A stretch of DNA of 64,000 nucleotides, from contig JAFSDI010000002.1 of the NCBI GenBank assembly GCA_017436325.1, forward strand, positions 35,457-99,456. Direction: 5' to 3'. The position numbers and the translations under genes are program-made. Positions 1 through 63,962 of the stretch are shown here, in pieces. This stretch comes from Alphaproteobacteria bacterium (GTDB lineage: Bacteria; Pseudomonadota; Alphaproteobacteria; Rs-D84). The notes beneath the pieces were generated by a model. That model was not told the origin of the DNA. It worked only from the letters and a program-made list of their open reading frames with translations, and searched no databases. How positions within the stretch are numbered: position 1 is the stretch's first letter; every line of letters begins with the position of its first letter.

Positions 1-408
1 ATCATAATCACTAAATATATTACCAAGACCAACTGAATAGTCATAGGGGTAAAATAATCTGTCTATCACACCTGCAATACCTGGAAAATTCGGGTCTGTA
101 TAATTTAATAATAAAAGTTCCGATATATTATCAGTTGGGATTTGTGTTGTGCCGTGGTTTTCAATAAATTCCTCGCCAAATAAAAGTTCTAAATCACCTG
201 AAATAACGTCACGATACGTCAATTCTGCCGGCGTTCCAATAATTTCTGACAAAGTTGTTAATTCACTTTTATCTGCCTTAGAATTCAGTGATTCCATTGT
301 TGCATAATCTGCGATTTTCTCGTCAAAGAACCCGCGCGAAATAATAGATGCGCCTGCACTGCCCATAAATGTAACCCCAAAAACTGCACCAAGAAAAATT
401 TTATTCAT
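1..408 (-). CDS. Secreted protein, paralog 1 of a three-member family. The N-terminal 136 aa are in the window and the C-terminus runs off the left edge. It has a signal peptide followed by the motif ASIISRGFFDEKI.
   Basis: ATG at 408..406 is preceded by AAGGAG. Translation MNKIFLGAVFGVTFMGSAGASIISRGFFDEKIADYA is homologous to the N-termini of the ORFs at 55617 and 62787. It was missing from the ORF track because no stop codon lies in the window. Confidence 0.7.
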   Translation of the reverse strand, partial: MNKIFLGAVFGVTFMGSAGASIISRGFFDEKIADYATMESLNSKADKSELTTLSEIIGTPAELTYRDVISGDLELLFGEEFIENHGTTQIPTDNISELLLLNYTDPNFPGIAGVIDRLFYPYDYSVGLGNIFSDYD

Positions 409-420
409 ATTAACTCCTTT

Positions 421-700
421 CTTTGAATATAAAAATACCGCAGTGAAAACCTGCGGTCGGGGCGTTGCTAAATCATCTTGTTATTGACCCTGTTCGCCTT
501 TAGTGAATTTCACCTATTGCATAGCGAACAGCCCCCCGACCTTTTTTTTAGTCAGGGTATTTAAAATACAGTGCAAATACAGGGATTGATTTGTCGGAAT
601 AACGACACTTAATATATGACCACATATATTTGCACCGAACAAGATAGGCCTAGCACAGCCCCGAACCGGATTCCCACCCAGTTCGATATAAATTATAACA
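421..700 (-). promoter_or_regulatory. Conserved structured 5' leader (copy 1) with an intrinsic terminator hairpin (ACCGCAG..CTGCGGT followed by a T-run) upstream of secreted paralog 1.
   Basis: The reverse complement is about 85% identical to 55336-55606, including GGTGGGAATC.GGTTCGGGGCTG, the palindrome AATATATG..CATATATT, GTCGGGGGGCTGTTCGC and the terminator. Confidence 0.6.
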
Positions 701-735
701 TATCTTACAATTTTTTGTAAATTAAATTTTATATC

Positions 736-53318: not shown

Positions 53319-54725
53319 ATGACCGAACGAAACCAAGAAAATTTAACAGCCGCCTTGATACTTGAAAATGACCGCAAGAATATTGCAGCATTGGAATCTG
53401 CACGTCTTGATGGCAGAATTAATGACGAAGCGGCTGAATATCTAAAATTTTTGTATTCAGATAGTTTCTATTGGTTTCGTGAGGTATTTTATATTCTTGG
53501 CAAGTGTTTTGGTGCGCCAAAGACCGCTGTTATGCGTTATGACTATGAACGTGATTGCGCCATAGAAGAACCGATTAGTATTGCGGACATTAATCCATTA
53601 AATGCATATATTGTTCAGCATCGTCTGGATAACGACCCGATGCGAAATCAGTTTTTTACAAGTTCGGCTGGGCATAAAATTGACTTGGCTGTATCATCGA
53701 TTGTAACGGTTATTGTTGGTGCGCAAAAAACAGTATCGCGTGCACTGGATAAAATTGTTGGTAAATACTATGAATCATACATAGAAGAAGTTGCAGGAAC
53801 AGTATATAACGTGATTTCCTCGCACGAGCGTGAGGCATCAGCGCGTGCTGTTGCAGAAAAAATAAAGGCAAAATTAAAAGAGAAATATATTTCTACGCCG
53901 GCTGAAACCGTATTATCGATTATTGGTTCTGGGCACGAAAAGATTGCTGCAGATTTGGTTCGTGCATTGGATAAAATCAAAAAGCCACGTATGCGTCTGC
54001 AAGACATATGGCGCGTAAAGTGTCTGTTTGACTTAATACCACAGGCGCGCACTTTTATAGAGCGGATTCAAGCGATGATGCCAGACAGAATATTATCTGT
54101 GCGTGATTGCTTTTATAATATGCAAAATCCGCGCAATTATCGTGATGCAAAGGTTGTTATAAATATCGGCCCAAACAAAGACACTGTAATCCCGATGGAG
54201 ATTATATGTCAGGTTCGTACATTCTTTGAATTTGAAAATAAAACACATTGTGTTTATGAAAGTGCGCGTAAAACAAAATCGAAAAAATCCGATGTGCTTG
54301 AAGCAAAGCTGGCTGTTTTTTACGAAGATGGTGTCAAGGCATACAATCGTATGATTTGCAAATGTCTGGATGATTTATTTGACAGGGTTGGTTGGAATAT
54401 TTTATACAGTCAGGACAACATTGTTTCTGTTCTTGATGGTTTTCCAAAGGAATGCAAATTGTATTATCCGCAAAAGGTGCTTGATAATATCATAGAAAAA
54501 CTAGATGATGCGATACAAAATGAATTATTTCAAATATCGAATGCACCGACAAAATTAACCAAGGCCCAAGAATCAAATATTTTTCATTTTATGGCGCGTT
54601 TTGTTTTGGTTTCTGCGATGCCTTATATGCAAAATGATTGGGCGATAACAGGGGACAGTCAATCTGCGCGTTTATTTAATTTTGTAATGAAAGAAGTTCA
54701 ACGTTATTACAAGAAATCAGCCTGA
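53319..54725 (+). CDS. Protein of 468 aa with a central RelA/SpoT-like nucleotidyltransferase (alarmone-synthetase-like) domain.
   Basis: ...RDCFYNMQNPRNYRDAKVVINI...MEIICQVRTFFEFENKTHCVYESARK resembles DYIa.PK.nGYrSlH...EiQIRT...WAe.eH..YK. The match is not certain. Confidence 0.45.
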   Translation: MTERNQENLTAALILENDRKNIAALESARLDGRINDEAAEYLKFLYSDSFYWFREVFYILGKCFGAPKTAVMRYDYERDCAIEEPISIADINPLNAYIVQHRLDNDPMRNQFFTSSAGHKIDLAVSSIVTVIVGAQKTVSRALDKIVGKYYESYIEEVAGTVYNVISSHEREASARAVAEKIKAKLKEKYISTPAETVLSIIGSGHEKIAADLVRALDKIKKPRMRLQDIWRVKCLFDLIPQARTFIERIQAMMPDRILSVRDCFYNMQNPRNYRDAKVVINIGPNKDTVIPMEIICQVRTFFEFENKTHCVYESARKTKSKKSDVLEAKLAVFYEDGVKAYNRMICKCLDDLFDRVGWNILYSQDNIVSVLDGFPKECKLYYPQKVLDNIIEKLDDAIQNELFQISNAPTKLTKAQESNIFHFMARFVLVSAMPYMQNDWAITGDSQSARLFNFVMKEVQRYYKKSA

Positions 54726-54853
54726 TTTAACAAGAAAATATACCCAATTAGTATTTTTGCTTTCTTCTTGCGTTAATGTATTAAAATTGGCAAAATAATA
54801 TCAGGTTCTTGATAGTCTTAGGGAACCATAACCAGCATAGGAAAGGATACAAT

Positions 54854-55195
54854 ATGCGTCAAGGAAAAGTAAAATGGTACAATGGTAAAAAATGTTTTGG
54901 CTTTATCAGCCCTGACACACCAAACGAAGACGGCAACACAGATGATGTATTTGTTCATTCAAGTTCTTTAAAGGCCGCCGGCATCAGATTTTTGAACGAA
55001 AATGATATTGTTGAATTCGAAGATGAGGTTCGCAATGACAAATTATCTGTCACGACTATCAATCTTATTCAACGTGATGAAGAGGCTGCACGCCAATTCC
55101 AAGAACGCCGTGCAGAACGTCGTCGTGCAATCGAAGAACGTAAACAACGCAAGGAGAAATCATCGCGTCGTGGTTTTGCATTCTGGAAAAAATAA
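54854..55195 (+). CDS. Cold-shock domain protein with a 45-aa Arg/Glu/Lys-rich C-terminal tail.
   Basis: GKVKWYNGKKCFGFI is followed by the tail ...RAERRRAIEERKQRKEKSSRRGFAFWKK. Confidence 0.8.
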   Translation: MRQGKVKWYNGKKCFGFISPDTPNEDGNTDDVFVHSSSLKAAGIRFLNENDIVEFEDEVRNDKLSVTTINLIQRDEEAARQFQERRAERRRAIEERKQRKEKSSRRGFAFWKK

Positions 55196-55228: not shown

Positions 55229-55335
55229 GTTTTTTTTATATTAATTTCATATTTTCAGATATTGATATTGTATTTTACTTATACGGCAAAAATATTTTTT
55301 ATATTTACAAAAAATCATAAACTATGTTATAATTC

Positions 55336-55606
55336 ACAATGAACTGGGTGGGAATCTGGTTCGGGGCTGTCGTAGGCCTTATGACTTCCGGTGCAAATAT
55401 ATGTGTGCATATATTAAGTGTCGTTATTCCGACAAAATATTCCCTGTATTTGCACTGTAATTTTGATAAACCCTGACTTTTTTGTCGGGGGGCTGTTCGC
55501 TATACAACAGGTGAATTCACCAAAGGCGAACAGGGTCATTGAAGTCATGATTTACGAACTCCCCGACCGCAGGATTTTTCACTGCGGTTTTTGTTTTAAT
55601 CAAAGG
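55336..55606 (+). promoter_or_regulatory. Conserved structured 5' leader (copy 2), ending in an intrinsic terminator (ACCGCAGGATTTTTCACTGCGGTTTTTGTTTT), upstream of secreted paralog 2.
   Basis: See the entry at 421-700. The long-range stem is CTGTTCGC..GCGAACAG, with sub-hairpins GGTGAATTCACC and AATATATGTGTGCATATATT. Confidence 0.6.
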
Positions 55607-55616
55607 AGTTTATAAA

Positions 55617-56201
55617 ATGAAAAAGCTATTAATTAGCACGATATTGGGGGGTGTACTTACCTGCCCTGCCCTTGCATCAATTGTGTCACGTGGTTTTTTA
55701 GAAGAAACGCTTGATTCCTATGCGACTTTTTCAGCGGTGAATTCTCGTTTTGGGGCTTGGCGGCAAGGCGGGTCTGTTTATGGATTCGCGTCGGGATCTG
55801 ATGGTTATGCGGATACTTTTCTATCTCTTCTTTCTGCAAATGGCCTACGTAGTGTTTATCCGGTTTCTTTGGCTGAAATGATATATGCTTTATATGGTAC
55901 AGATAAAGAAAAAGGGTTGATATCATCAATATTTTCTGGCTGGTCTAATGATGGACGTTATTATCGTGGATTATTTCAAATAGATTCTGATTTAAGTACA
56001 TTGACTGATAGAGTTATATTAAATAGAGAAGAAATATCAGCGCTTAATGCAAAAATTGACGGCAAAATAAATAATTTATCAACAACTGCCAGTAACGGAA
56101 AGTATGTTTTAACAGCGGTCAAGGAAGGCGACCAGACTACTTATGCCTGGGAACCAATTGACCGTTCTGAAACAGAAAGCGCAATCCCCACAGATGAATA
56201 A
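55617..56201 (+). CDS. Secreted protein, paralog 2 of the family (194 aa).
   Basis: The signal peptide is followed by ASIVSRGFLEETL. The C-terminus GKYVLTAVKEGDQTTYAWEPIDRSE is shared with paralog 3. Confidence 0.7.
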   Translation: MKKLLISTILGGVLTCPALASIVSRGFLEETLDSYATFSAVNSRFGAWRQGGSVYGFASGSDGYADTFLSLLSANGLRSVYPVSLAEMIYALYGTDKEKGLISSIFSGWSNDGRYYRGLFQIDSDLSTLTDRVILNREEISALNAKIDGKINNLSTTASNGKYVLTAVKEGDQTTYAWEPIDRSETESAIPTDE

Positions 56202-56205
56202 AGTA

Positions 56206-56316
56206 AAAAATGCCGGCTTTTTTTAGTAAAAATATTAAAAAAAGCCGGTAAAATACATACTGTGAAAAAATAATAGACTTGTTAAAAAAATACCGGCTTT
56301 TACCGGTGTTTTTTGA
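56206..56316. repeat. Composite palindromic element, copy D: a long inverted repeat, a spacer, then the hairpin ATACCGGCTTTTACCGGTG. It lies between the paralog-2 gene and parB.
   Basis: It has the same architecture as 58128-58236. Confidence 0.65.
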
Positions 56317-61389: not shown

Positions 61390-62397
61390 TTATCTCTCGA
61401 TATAATTTGGTAAAAAGAATGTTTTTATTTTAACTCTTATTTCTTCCAATTTTGTTTTAATAACTAAATCCTTGCGGATTTCATCAAGTGGTCTTGGGTT
61501 ATTGTTTTTATCGCGCCATGGCACTGTGATTTTTCTACCAGAATTTTCACCAAGTGTGACATTTCCTGCGGCATCAAAGGCCATTAACAGTGTCAAAGAT
61601 TCAGGTGAACCACCCAAGAAATTAAACTGTGGGAAATCGGTTGGTTTTGCCTCGCTCAGATTTTTTGCGCGTCCATTTGCAAAAGGTGCGGGTGAAAAAG
61701 AAGGTATAATGAATATATTTTTATTTAATATATCGAAAAGTTGTCCTGATGTAAAATCCACGGTTTTTTCTAGGCTTATATTATATGTGTTCTTTAGTTT
61801 CAATAGCAGTTTTTCATACATATCCTTATCGCTATCAAACCCAGAGATATGAAACAGCATAGATTGTTTTAATTCTTTATTTTGTGCGAATTCCTTAAGT
61901 ATTTTATAGTTATTTTCCAGTGCATTAGGATGATATTTATCCAATGATAGCGATATTTGATAGGCAAAAGGTCTATGATTATTGCTGCAACTTATCAAAT
62001 CTTGCAGAATATTTTTCTGTAAATTTTGTTTTTCTATCCATGCACCGTTAGTTTTTAAATCCAGTAAAATATTTTTATCGGTTATATAATTGATTAAATT
62101 TGGCACATAATTAATATCGTGATGTTCATAGGCACTCATTAATTCGCCACCGGTAATAATCACATTGTTACAGAATTTAGTATCCTGTAAAGCGGAATCG
62201 ACATAGTATTTTACAACGGATTCTGGGATAAAGGTCTTACTACGATTTTTATCGGACGACTCGCAACAGTGTGGACAATTATACCAACACCAATGTGTGG
62301 CTTTAAAAATCATAAAATAGGGCAGATTTTGTACCAGTTCGGATGCTGGGAAAAATTTGTTGAATTTTCTTTCAAAAGATTTGCTAAATTTAAACAT
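61390..62397 (-). CDS. Radical SAM enzyme of unknown function (no SPASM domain).
   Basis: It has the CxxxCxxC motif CWYNCPHC and the glycine-rich SAM motif IITGGELM. Confidence 0.65.
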   Translation of the reverse strand: MFKFSKSFERKFNKFFPASELVQNLPYFMIFKATHWCWYNCPHCCESSDKNRSKTFIPESVVKYYVDSALQDTKFCNNVIITGGELMSAYEHHDINYVPNLINYITDKNILLDLKTNGAWIEKQNLQKNILQDLISCSNNHRPFAYQISLSLDKYHPNALENNYKILKEFAQNKELKQSMLFHISGFDSDKDMYEKLLLKLKNTYNISLEKTVDFTSGQLFDILNKNIFIIPSFSPAPFANGRAKNLSEAKPTDFPQFNFLGGSPESLTLLMAFDAAGNVTLGENSGRKITVPWRDKNNNPRPLDEIRKDLVIKTKLEEIRVKIKTFFLPNYIER

Positions 62398-62469
62398 TGG
62401 AAACGTATACTACACAAAATAATATGTCTGTCAATATGTTTTTTTATAAATTTTTTTAGATTTACAAAA

Positions 62470-62786
62470 AAATAAAATCTGTGTTATAATAGAGGATGAA
62501 ATCGCAGGGATGCGCTTTCGGGGCCTTAGAAAAGCCTATCTACAATCCATATGATAAGAATCATATTGGAAATCCGTGCATTAATGGCGCGGTATTGCGC
62601 TATTTTTTGTACCCATAACCCCAAAGGCAATGTTTTTTTGTCGGGGTGCCATCGGTTATACCACAGGGGCTATTGGCCCCAAAGGCCGATGGGATCGGTA
62701 TTGTAGACGATTTTTCTAACACCCCGACCGCCAAAATCCTGTGGCGGTTTTTTAGTTTAACGCACGGAACCAAAGGGGCAACGAAA
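62470..62786 (+). promoter_or_regulatory. Conserved structured 5' leader (copy 3, more diverged), with an intrinsic terminator (CCGACCGCCAAAATCCTGTGGCGGTTTTTT), upstream of secreted paralog 3.
   Basis: It shares GG.TG..AATC..., TTGTCGGGG, a palindromic ATATGAT..ATCATAT element and the terminator architecture with leaders 1 and 2. Confidence 0.5.
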
Positions 62787-63962
62787 ATGAAAAGACTCTT
62801 AACCGCTGGCATATTCGGCACGATATTGGGAATTGTTGGCGCAGGCACTGCAAACGCATCAATCGTATCAAGCGGATTTTTAGACGAAAAATTAACAGAA
62901 TACGCACTCAGCACATCACTAGACCTGAAAGCAAACCAAAGTGACCTAACCGCATTAAATGATATTGTTGGAATAAAAAACTGGAATCTTGTTTTAAATT
63001 TAAAACTTGGGGAATTTCCACATTTATCTGAATTATTTCCAAATTTAGTACCAGACAAAGGAATGCCCTTCGCAGATATATCAAACTATATAATTGGTGA
63101 TTTAACATATATCAGCGGCCCAAGTCTTGCCGGTGTGACGGATAAGTTATTAAATGGTTGGACAAATTCTGATGGTGAAACATATCTTGGTCTAAAAGAT
63201 ATAAATACCAAAATCGGCAACCTGCCAAGTGGGGATTTTCCTGAATTTCCAGGATATGAGCATCTCTCTTATATTGGACAACCGCTTACATATCCAACAA
63301 GTTTAGCAGAATTAATTACTGCACTATACGGCAACTTAGAAACTGACTCACGAGGATTATTGTCAGGTATTATTACGGGCTTTCCATTAAATGGTAACCC
63401 TGATGAGTCTGTAGGCCTAATGCCAAACTTTTGGCTTGCGAATGAAGCAAACTATCTTGCCAACGCAAATGCCACTAAAATCGGTACCGTACCTTCTGGA
63501 AAAAATCTTGCAGGTATGATAAGTGAAACCGATGCCAAAATCGGTGTTTTACCACCAGACACAACAGTTACTGGTATGATGGGGAACCCTGTTTTGTTAC
63601 ATTATGAACAGAATATAATACCATTATATGACCTTATTCTTTTTGGCAGTAAAGGGCTAATAGTAGCTAATCCAATAACCGGGGCCATCATACCATTTCC
63701 ATTATTGGGCTTGCATGATATTACTGCTAAAGTTAATAAAATCGGTGACCTGCCAACAGAATATGCGACTGTTGGGGCGGCGCTGACCGCGATTAAGGGC
63801 ATTGCCGAAGATGCCAAGGCTGCGGCACTGGCGGCAATCCCAGACCCTAAGCAAGAGGGTTCAAGCGGTAAATTTGTCTTAACTGTTGATATTGTTGGCG
63901 ATAATGCGACCTATCACTGGGAAAAGATAGATCGCGAGGGCGAAACTACCACTACCGAATAA
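62787..63962 (+). CDS. Secreted protein, paralog 3 (391 aa), with internal KIG.LP repeats.
   Basis: The signal peptide is followed by ASIVSSGFLDEKL. The repeats are TKIGNLPSG, TKIGTVPSG, AKIGVLPPD and NKIGDLPTE. The C-terminus is GKFVLTVDIVGDNATYHWEKIDREGE. Confidence 0.7.
   Translation: MKRLLTAGIFGTILGIVGAGTANASIVSSGFLDEKLTEYALSTSLDLKANQSDLTALNDIVGIKNWNLVLNLKLGEFPHLSELFPNLVPDKGMPFADISNYIIGDLTYISGPSLAGVTDKLLNGWTNSDGETYLGLKDINTKIGNLPSGDFPEFPGYEHLSYIGQPLTYPTSLAELITALYGNLETDSRGLLSGIITGFPLNGNPDESVGLMPNFWLANEANYLANANATKIGTVPSGKNLAGMISETDAKIGVLPPDTTVTGMMGNPVLLHYEQNIIPLYDLILFGSKGLIVANPITGAIIPFPLLGLHDITAKVNKIGDLPTEYATVGAALTAIKGIAEDAKAAALAAIPDPKQEGSSGKFVLTVDIVGDNATYHWEKIDREGETTTTE

Follow-up and report, generated by a model that had tools for sequence, protein, structure and literature searches.

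Trimeric autotransporter adhesins such as YadA, BadA and Vomp are multi-copy, recombining, length-variable coiled-coil surface fibres of host-associated Proteobacteria. Conserved ends around a hypervariable centre, together with mosaic evolution, also mark Msp2/P44 of Anaplasma and VlsE of Borrelia, and T4 fibritin (wac, PF07921 plus foldon) has a conserved N-terminal end, a segmented helical rod that varies in length and, beyond the helix, a short beta-hairpin at the C-terminus. Among regulatory RNAs, terminator-type riboswitches and attenuators set a promoter-proximal, covarying multi-helix fold immediately ahead of an intrinsic terminator, which is followed by a ribosome-binding site. Published copies of the small RNA (sRNA) sRNA-Xcc1 lie directly upstream of symE in Xanthomonas integron cassettes and of an ORF6N gene in APSE phages; in Xylella a genomic island carries five copies at intervals of about 385 nt, and Xcc1 homologues have been reported as expressed sRNAs (PMC12189769). 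Here we describe a gene set that bears likenesses to all of these systems. It lies in a 64,000-nt stretch, hereafter the window, of contig JAFSDI010000002.1 (assembly GCA_017436325.1, Alphaproteobacteria bacterium), and comprises three paralogous genes: paralog 1 (1..408, minus strand), paralog 2 (55617..56201, plus strand) and paralog 3 (62787..63962, plus strand). Our favoured reading, held with somewhat better than even confidence, is that the three genes belong to a lineage-specific multigene family and are scattered as self-contained expression units, that their proteins are exported fibres, and that the leader RNA ahead of each gene is a cis-acting attenuation switch.

A structured leader RNA precedes each paralog

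Upstream of each paralog, the first-pass annotation of the window missed a promoter and, behind it, a large structured leader RNA that carries a terminator. This leader is a real structured RNA, previously undescribed, and is the most solid new result of our analysis. When 400 bp around the three start codons were aligned, the roughly 290 bp upstream of each paralog proved better conserved than the coding sequence, with 81% DNA identity between the leaders of paralogs 1 and 2. Each unit has the same order: a near-consensus sigma-70 promoter, a leader of about 260 nt that includes an intrinsic-terminator hairpin, a ribosome-binding site, and an open reading frame (ORF) with a Sec-type signal peptide.

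The promoters, TTTACA-18-(TG)TATAAT, were located at 692..721 (minus strand) for paralog 1, at 55304..55333 (plus strand, 11 of 12 consensus positions) for paralog 2 and at 62461..62490 (plus strand) for paralog 3. The corresponding leaders occupy 427..685 (minus strand; 171.1 bits against our covariance model R1; terminator hairpin 457-437), 55340..55598 (plus strand; 185.8 bits) and 62497..62758 (plus strand; 163.3 bits; terminator hairpin 62726-62749). The model recovered exactly three copies in the window, each upstream of a paralog; neither it nor blastn found a further copy there, and an Rfam scan of the window at gathering threshold returned only transfer RNAs (tRNAs). Gene callers extend ORFs into the leader, a coding interpretation which we rejected because the leader varies in a manner that is compensatory at the RNA level.

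In the paralog 2 unit, helix P1 (55341-62, with a GGGA loop at 55350-53) and a GGGG tract (55363-66) are succeeded by the 5' strands of P3 and P4 (55368-88), helix P5 (55389-55457), CCCUGAC (55471-77), GUCGGGGGG (55484-92), helix P7 (55493-55533), the 3' strands of P4 and P3 (55541-57), CUCCCCGAC (55559-67) and the terminator hairpin (55566-88) with its U-run; shortly beyond the leader comes a Shine-Dalgarno sequence (55603-08). All three terminators consist of a GC-rich hairpin and a U-run some 20-30 nt ahead of the ribosome-binding site. Compensatory changes set P1, P3, P4 and the terminator of the paralog 3 leader apart from those of the other two; the terminator stem varies between copies in a compensatory way (CCGCAG/CUGCGG versus CCGCCA/UGGCGG).

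Several measures support the fold. The transcript is more stable than shuffled controls in single-sequence folding (z = -5.6), and RNAalifold found compensatory changes in 25 of 55 pairs across 13 copies, including the long-range helices that join the 5' third to the 3' third. The same helices, with abundant covariation, were seen in 73 non-redundant copies, and helix P7 covaries as well. In the covariance-model alignment, which spans a conserved unit of 238 model positions (an RNA of about 235-260 nt), 95.4% of cells were paired, as against 31-49% when the partners were slid; compensatory changes affected 34 of 46 pairs, and 0 of 500 shuffles attained these values. An alignment-free test agrees, with a P3/P4 duplex of -19.8 kcal/mol for a leader's own partner versus -10.2 kcal/mol for a foreign one (p = 6e-31), and with the own 3' segment as the best partner of the 5' segment in 69% of leaders.

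The leader beyond the window

The leader precedes ten of the 12 family loci fetched from contigs of metagenome-assembled genomes (MAGs). A restrictive pattern for its 3' domain matched 84 metagenome stretches and one IMG/VR contig, which the covariance model showed to be full-length copies of the leader RNA of about 235 nt; outside the window the model gave 95 strong matches, on other gut metagenome contigs. Statistics on the downstream genes were drawn from 66 non-redundant instances with a callable ORF. These ORFs have a median length of 173 aa, and a Shine-Dalgarno-preceded start codon in the same orientation lies a median of 46 nt past the CCCCGACCG motif of the leader core. Signal-peptide-like N-termini, as judged by a crude hydrophobicity rule, were present in 45 of the 66 and a lipobox in at least 13, and a few carried (T/A)SKxYVD, a motif typical of the wider superfamily to which we return below. 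Since the leader precedes diverse, mostly exported proteins, it is a general module for accessory proteins that is not specific to the paralog family.

Individual copies offered further observations. Genes for tRNAs occur within a few hundred bases of several units (L007:2596-2668, L008:2387-2468, L024:699-771, L038:1295-1365, L043 and L047:133-601), and there are hints that some leader-plus-gene units lie at island or integration hot spots. On the viral-classed contig IMGVR_UViG_3300029906_000277 (L107:5281-5360) the leader stands upstream of an 82-aa ORF that has no signal peptide, and a near-identical counterpart of this unit is found on L106. A degenerate second leader (56 bits) lies on a sheep-rectum MAG contig (L002:3943-4121, minus strand) just 3' of a paralog, on the opposite strand and directed into the gene, and could represent either a remnant or a source of antisense transcript. 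Lastly, three short-read assemblies of the 194-aa gene among Logan contigs (L015-L017) break 132 nt 5' of the start codon, inside the leader, an effect expected of a multi-copy repeat.

Two mutually exclusive helices and the case for a switch

A single strand of the leader, GUCGGGG(N)G, has two possible partners, CCCUGAC upstream or C(N')CCCCGAC downstream. The upstream choice forms a local hairpin whose extra pair (206/229) covaries (CG 23, UG 22, UA 20, GU 6, AU 4). The downstream choice forms a stem that is 98.3% paired and whose N/N' pair (237/397) likewise covaries (AU 41, GU 30, UA 14); this GUCGGGG/CCCCGAC stem is a pseudoknot, since it crosses P3 and P4, and it recruits 2-3 nt from the base of the terminator stem. 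A switch is likely because the two helices are mutually exclusive and both covary, and the leader probably serves to switch expression of the paralogs.

The leader would, as we envisage it, act in cis by transcription attenuation. In an OFF conformer the CCCUGAC/GUCGGGG hairpin would form, the 5' GGGG would pair with CCCC, and the terminator would remain intact. In an ON conformer the GUCGGGGNG/CN'CCCCGAC stem would form a pseudoknot with P3 and P4 and draw off two or three of the bottom base pairs of the terminator. The assignment of the two conformers to ON and OFF is one that we infer.

Several observations count against this mechanism. Firstly, the conformers overlap the terminator by only 2-3 nt. 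Secondly, the few variants at column 405 keep the terminator pair and lose the pseudoknot pair. Thirdly, most instances were collected with a pattern that fixes the G and C tracts, so that the invariance of these tracts is uninformative. Finally, around a third of the downstream genes elsewhere have no signal-peptide-like N-terminus.

Compared with terminator-type riboswitches and attenuators, the leader shows the same arrangement of a conserved, covarying multi-helix fold close to the promoter, with an intrinsic terminator immediately behind it and a ribosome-binding site and ORF next in line, and it shares with them two mutually exclusive covarying helices, many conserved unpaired nucleotides and an invariant GNRA-type loop. 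Unlike them, its fold matches no Rfam riboswitch, and its downstream genes have no common metabolic theme, only a bias towards exported proteins.

The sole Rfam resemblance of the leader is to sRNA-Xcc1 (RF02221) and is sub-threshold. With permissive settings the window copy scored 31.1 bits and other leaders 29-48.3 bits, with model positions 1-87 covered, and all copies fell short of the 53-bit gathering score. The alignment places the entire 87-nt model on the 3' third of the leader, through GUCGGGGNG/CN'CCCCGAC, a hairpin with a UAUACAACAGG-type loop and a C-rich tail; the outer stem enclosing a junction with an AUACAA-loop hairpin is present in the leader and covaries. Both RNAs are multi-copy and lie directly upstream of accessory genes. 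The leader differs in being about three times larger (235-260 nt), with an extra 5' domain (P1 with its GGGA loop, and P5), and in replacing the second local hairpin of Xcc1 by the long-range P3/P4 pairing with that 5' domain, which forms the pseudoknot. It also resides on the chromosomes of gut Alphaproteobacteria, as opposed to the integron cassettes of Xanthomonas.

This resemblance raises the alternative that the upstream RNA is a stand-alone, trans-acting sRNA like sRNA-Xcc1, with the ORFs expressed constitutively through leaky read-through. The RNA has its own promoter and a canonical terminator, the full-length match to sRNA-Xcc1 recurs in most of the leaders examined (29-48 bits), and the homologues reported as expressed are in keeping with such a role. 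However, the start codons lie too close behind CCCCGACCG for a separate promoter, the published Xcc1 copies themselves adjoin downstream genes (symE and the ORF6N gene), and both alternative helices covary; we therefore regard a free-standing sRNA as improbable. A broader proposal, which we put forward tentatively, is that the leader represents a new class of large, pseudoknotted cis-regulatory RNA, whether a riboswitch or a factor-dependent attenuator, that would place accessory and mostly exported proteins, the mosaic family included, under one signal. The supposedly trans-acting sRNA-Xcc1 would then be a truncated relative of this cis module.

The three window paralogs

The three genes constitute a genuine paralog family, as had been observed in the first-pass annotation, with whose ORFs and translations ours agree at the coordinates given. 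In paralog 2 (194 aa), cleavage is predicted after ALA20 and is followed by SIVSRGFLEE, an alpha/beta domain at about residues 81-120, a helix (126-154), a beta-hairpin (163-180) and an acidic tail. Paralog 3 (391 aa) has both ends as in paralog 2, and its translation contains an Ala-rich helix N-terminal of the C-terminal hairpin as well as the four KIGx(L/V)P repeats already reported for it. Its start codon is the ATG at 62787; the mechanical ORF list instead has GTG 62646, an extension which we discount because the stretch from 62646 is RNA leader. The window edge truncates paralog 1, of which only the N-terminal 136 aa are available.

The Sec-type signal peptides can be read directly in the sequence: all three have an n-h-c layout, with Lys or Arg in the n-region, a hydrophobic h-region and an AxA end (ALA, ANA, AGA), as is characteristic of signal peptidase I substrates (MKKLLISTILGGVLTCPALA-S, ...GAGTANA-S and ...GSAGA-S, with cleavage before the Ser). 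Directly behind them the alignment gives a mature N-terminus of SI(V/I)S(R/S)GF(L/F)(D/E)E..(Y)A in all three paralogs. Alignment and tblastn within the window (E = 6e-14 to 2e-6 for the N-terminal parts) thus agree with the earlier claim of a signal peptide followed by A-S-I-(V/I)-S-(R/S)-G-F-(L/F)-(D/E)-E throughout. The companion claim of a shared C-terminal block holds for the two complete paralogs, in which GK(Y/F)VLT..GD..TYxWExIDR (tblastn E = 1e-4 to 5e-4) precedes an acidic, Thr-rich tail; the C-terminus of paralog 1 is not visible because the gene runs off the window edge. The middle had been called hypervariable, which is apt as regards its variable length and mosaic make-up. It is not wholly unrelated between paralogs, as a region of about 100 aa, YP(V/T)SLAE(M/L)I(Y/T)ALYG..., is common to the centres at about 31% identity (E ~3e-4); the centres are accordingly variable in length and module content, yet partly related. 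No fourth copy was detected by tblastn within the window.

A mosaic family of gut Alphaproteobacteria

A word-indexed search of 5.8 billion proteins returned 154 homologues with near-identical ends and variable middles. None bears a functional name, and the source label, where there is one, is that of an 'Alphaproteobacteria bacterium' MAG. When 1.84 billion cluster representatives were searched exhaustively with a profile, 187 matched at E <= 1e-3, all of them unnamed, and a cluster look-up of the distant members supplied no names either. Three MAGs among the GTDB species genomes carry the family, with ten loci in RGIG6362 (sheep rectum), one in a goat-colon MAG and one in the third. The copy number per genome, a check proposed in the first-pass annotation, reaches ten, and the sheep-rectum and goat-colon MAGs, along with a contig labelled human gut metagenome, bear out the suggestion of host-associated organisms.

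Scans of the three window proteins against Pfam, NCBIfam and PHROGs gave no significant match, Pfam gave none even at E <= 1, and neither phmmer nor profile hmmsearch retrieved anything from PDB sequences. The first-pass annotation had likewise been unable to match the family to a characterised one, and had named flagellin and pilin as examples of families to watch for; with Pfam, NCBIfam, PHROGs and PDB all empty, and no flagellin or pilin profile matched, the family is neither. A literature search on RF32 gut Alphaproteobacteria produced nothing on these proteins. On sequence evidence, then, this is a narrow, uncharacterised family of gut and rumen Alphaproteobacteria.

Judged by their alignments, the family members are mosaics in which N- and C-terminal modules have been recombined around cores of very variable length. 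Many homologues are 80-99% identical across about 20% of the query and unrelated over the remainder. Among 151 full-length members, 21 N-terminal types are mixed with seven C-terminal types, all four combinations ('gametes') of N1/N4 with C0/C1 occur, and the core, measured from anchor to anchor, ranges from 79 to 988 aa, in line with the earlier description of a variable core between conserved ends. The first 57 aa of paralog 1 are nearly identical to those of the 211-aa relative P0144, beyond which the two diverge. The site downstream of gpsA is occupied by a paralog in both the window and RGIG6362, where gpsA is 78% identical and the paralog only about 38%.

Such mosaicism invites comparison with Msp2/P44 and VlsE, and with it the alternative of antigenic variation by gene conversion, in which the leader and N-terminus and the C-terminus would act as homology arms. 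The short, highly similar stretches beside unrelated cores, the finding of every N-type and C-type combination, the P0144 breakpoint and the 81% identity of two window leaders are all compatible with it. Unlike those systems, though, the copies of this family are autonomous: each is a whole gene, equipped with a signal peptide and a stop codon and served by a promoter and leader of its own, with neither a single expression site nor any silent cassette (an own promoter is confirmed only for the three window copies, and an own leader for these and for ten of the 12 fetched loci). Moreover, the window copies differ in C-terminal type, no recent conversion tract is visible between them, and recombination over evolutionary time accounts for the mosaics without a programmed mechanism. 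We consider programmed conversion rather doubtful, and prefer to see the genes as dispersed, self-contained units.

A distant branch from other gut Alphaproteobacteria MAGs (GC content 45-51%) widens the superfamily. Its members begin MKKLTAGIF...A(I/V)(T/A)SK(A/G)YVD, end ...GKYVLTA..G..TYxWExIER and occur in tandem arrays of five or six paralogs with short spacers (L018-L022, for example L021:1084-8004), flanked by OmpA and outer-membrane beta-barrel protein (OMP) genes on one side and by a VTT-domain gene and rbfA on the other. The leader RNA, sought with the covariance model, is absent in front of this tandem-array subfamily. In some distant members a pair of Cys residues is conserved in the C-terminal block or hairpin, which suggests a disulfide and hence a location outside the cytoplasm.

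Predicted structure, export and location

AlphaFold2 (AF2) monomer models were built for two paralogs with family alignments as input. Both contain an N-terminal helix past the signal peptide, an alpha/beta domain (predicted local distance difference test, pLDDT, 74-86), a long helix and a beta-hairpin (pLDDT about 73-75); the C-terminal end of the window proteins is a 20-residue hairpin and then an acidic tail. This end had been described as an 'anchor', a label which did not survive inspection: the acidic, Thr-rich terminus has no hydrophobic segment or known sorting motif, and the predicted beta-hairpin follows the long helix. Two relatives clear the Pfam cut-offs of trimeric coiled-coil models. 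P0324 matches Fibritin_C (PF07921; E = 6e-10, 39.6 bits against a cut-off of 21) in its coiled-coil part, and P0121 matches Alanine_zipper (PF11839; E = 6e-7).

From this architecture we propose that the protein, predicted to be exported across the inner membrane, may be a coiled-coil fibre, elongated and probably trimeric. Its oligomerisation would be nucleated by the C-terminal helix and beta-hairpin, the invariant mature N-terminus SI(V/I)SxGF(L/F)DE could be a docking or targeting end, and the variable core would lie exposed and diversify. The likeness is to T4 fibritin, with its conserved N-terminal end, segmented helical rod of variable length and short hairpin after the helix. Unlike fibritin, a part of the virion, the window proteins carry signal peptides and are cellular. 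Against the trimeric autotransporter adhesins, they show no YadA-type C-terminal beta-barrel anchor (none was matched in Pfam) and no head or neck domains.

Other results weigh against the fibre model. Overall AF2 quality is poor (pLDDT 59.8 and 57.1), and the window proteins themselves match neither the coiled-coil nor the fibritin models of Pfam. A foldon-like reading of the C-terminal block 'IPxPxxEGxxGKFVL...G...YxWxxI' was rejected, as hhalign of profile A6 against the T4 fibritin C-terminus gave a probability of 0.9%; the family profile did not retrieve fibritin from PDB sequences by hmmsearch. With neither Pfam model passed and foldon homology unsupported, the fibre and trimer model is one drawn from architecture. 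No outer-membrane secretion or anchoring route was identified, and a periplasmic location is therefore equally possible.

The last point bears on the alternative that the proteins remain in the periplasm and serve there, much as Braun lipoprotein does, as structural tethers or spacers, coiled coils that link the outer membrane, peptidoglycan or other parts of the envelope. A Sec signal peptide with no outer-membrane targeting feature would suit such a role, as would the OprI/Lpp-type trimeric coiled coil of the Alanine_zipper in P0121, the Ala-rich helix before the C-terminus of the window protein, and the OmpA and OMP beta-barrel genes beside the distant arrays. However, no lipobox Cys is present at the predicted cleavage site of the window proteins, and cores of 79-988 aa, module shuffling and rapid divergence would be unusual for a spacer of fixed width and are typical of exposed, diversifying proteins. 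We judge a tether unlikely, albeit the least so of the alternatives concerning the proteins themselves. The 'surface antigen' reading of the first-pass annotation is a plausible hypothesis.

The fibritin likeness could also mean that the genes are remnants of phage tail fibres or fibritin, or fibres of gene-transfer agents, and not cellular envelope proteins at all. Fibritin_C was matched among the relatives and one leader copy lies on an IMG/VR contig; in addition, some relatives have N-terminal Y-A-T-x-x-x-L-x-x-K-A-(D/N)-x-S-(D/E)-L segments and 'P-x-DG-x-YVL...G...W' C-termini, which we take to be phage-fibre-like. Against this, all members have signal peptides, no PHROG was matched, Foldseek found no viral structure (nothing in BFVD at E <= 0.001), and the neighbours are housekeeping genes (parAB, gidB, gpsA, ychF), with no phage genes seen nearby. 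A phage origin of this kind is very improbable, and exported cellular fibres remain our preferred reading of the proteins.

Genomic neighbourhood

The window is otherwise an ordinary stretch of housekeeping chromosome, with infB, aminoacyl-tRNA synthetases, topA, a penicillin-binding protein gene, parAB, gidB and gpsA. Upstream of paralog 2, a 468-aa ORF (53319-54725, plus strand) that has no Pfam match and is conserved in other contigs with the locus directly precedes a gene for a cold-shock-domain protein (54809-55195, plus strand). The latter has an unusual Arg/Glu/Lys-rich C-terminal extension (...EEAARQFQERRAERRRAIEERKQRKEKSSRRGFAFWKK) and ends at a strong terminator just ahead of the paralog 2 promoter. 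Past the 194-aa gene lies a bidirectional terminator-like hairpin (56285..56314, plus strand), common to the convergent parB. Between gpsA and the paralog 3 leader, a 335-aa protein is encoded at 61390-62397 (minus strand), whose match to radical SAM is weak and falls short of the Pfam cut-off; no homologue of it was detectable in the gap of the syntenic RGIG6362 locus (L010).

Significance

The uncultured Alphaproteobacteria of the gut and rumen are almost unstudied, and they gain two new features here. The first is a diversifying, multi-copy family of proteins, predicted to be exported, which may take part in interactions with the host or with phage. The second is a large, well-supported structured RNA that stands ahead of about 100 different accessory genes in the metagenomes sampled. 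If the leader is a switch, the genes behind it would make up a regulon, and the leader itself a sensor open to testing, in bacteria that have yet to be grown; a second look would also be merited at sRNA-Xcc1, hitherto regarded in Xanthomonas and Xylella as a virulence sRNA that acts in trans.
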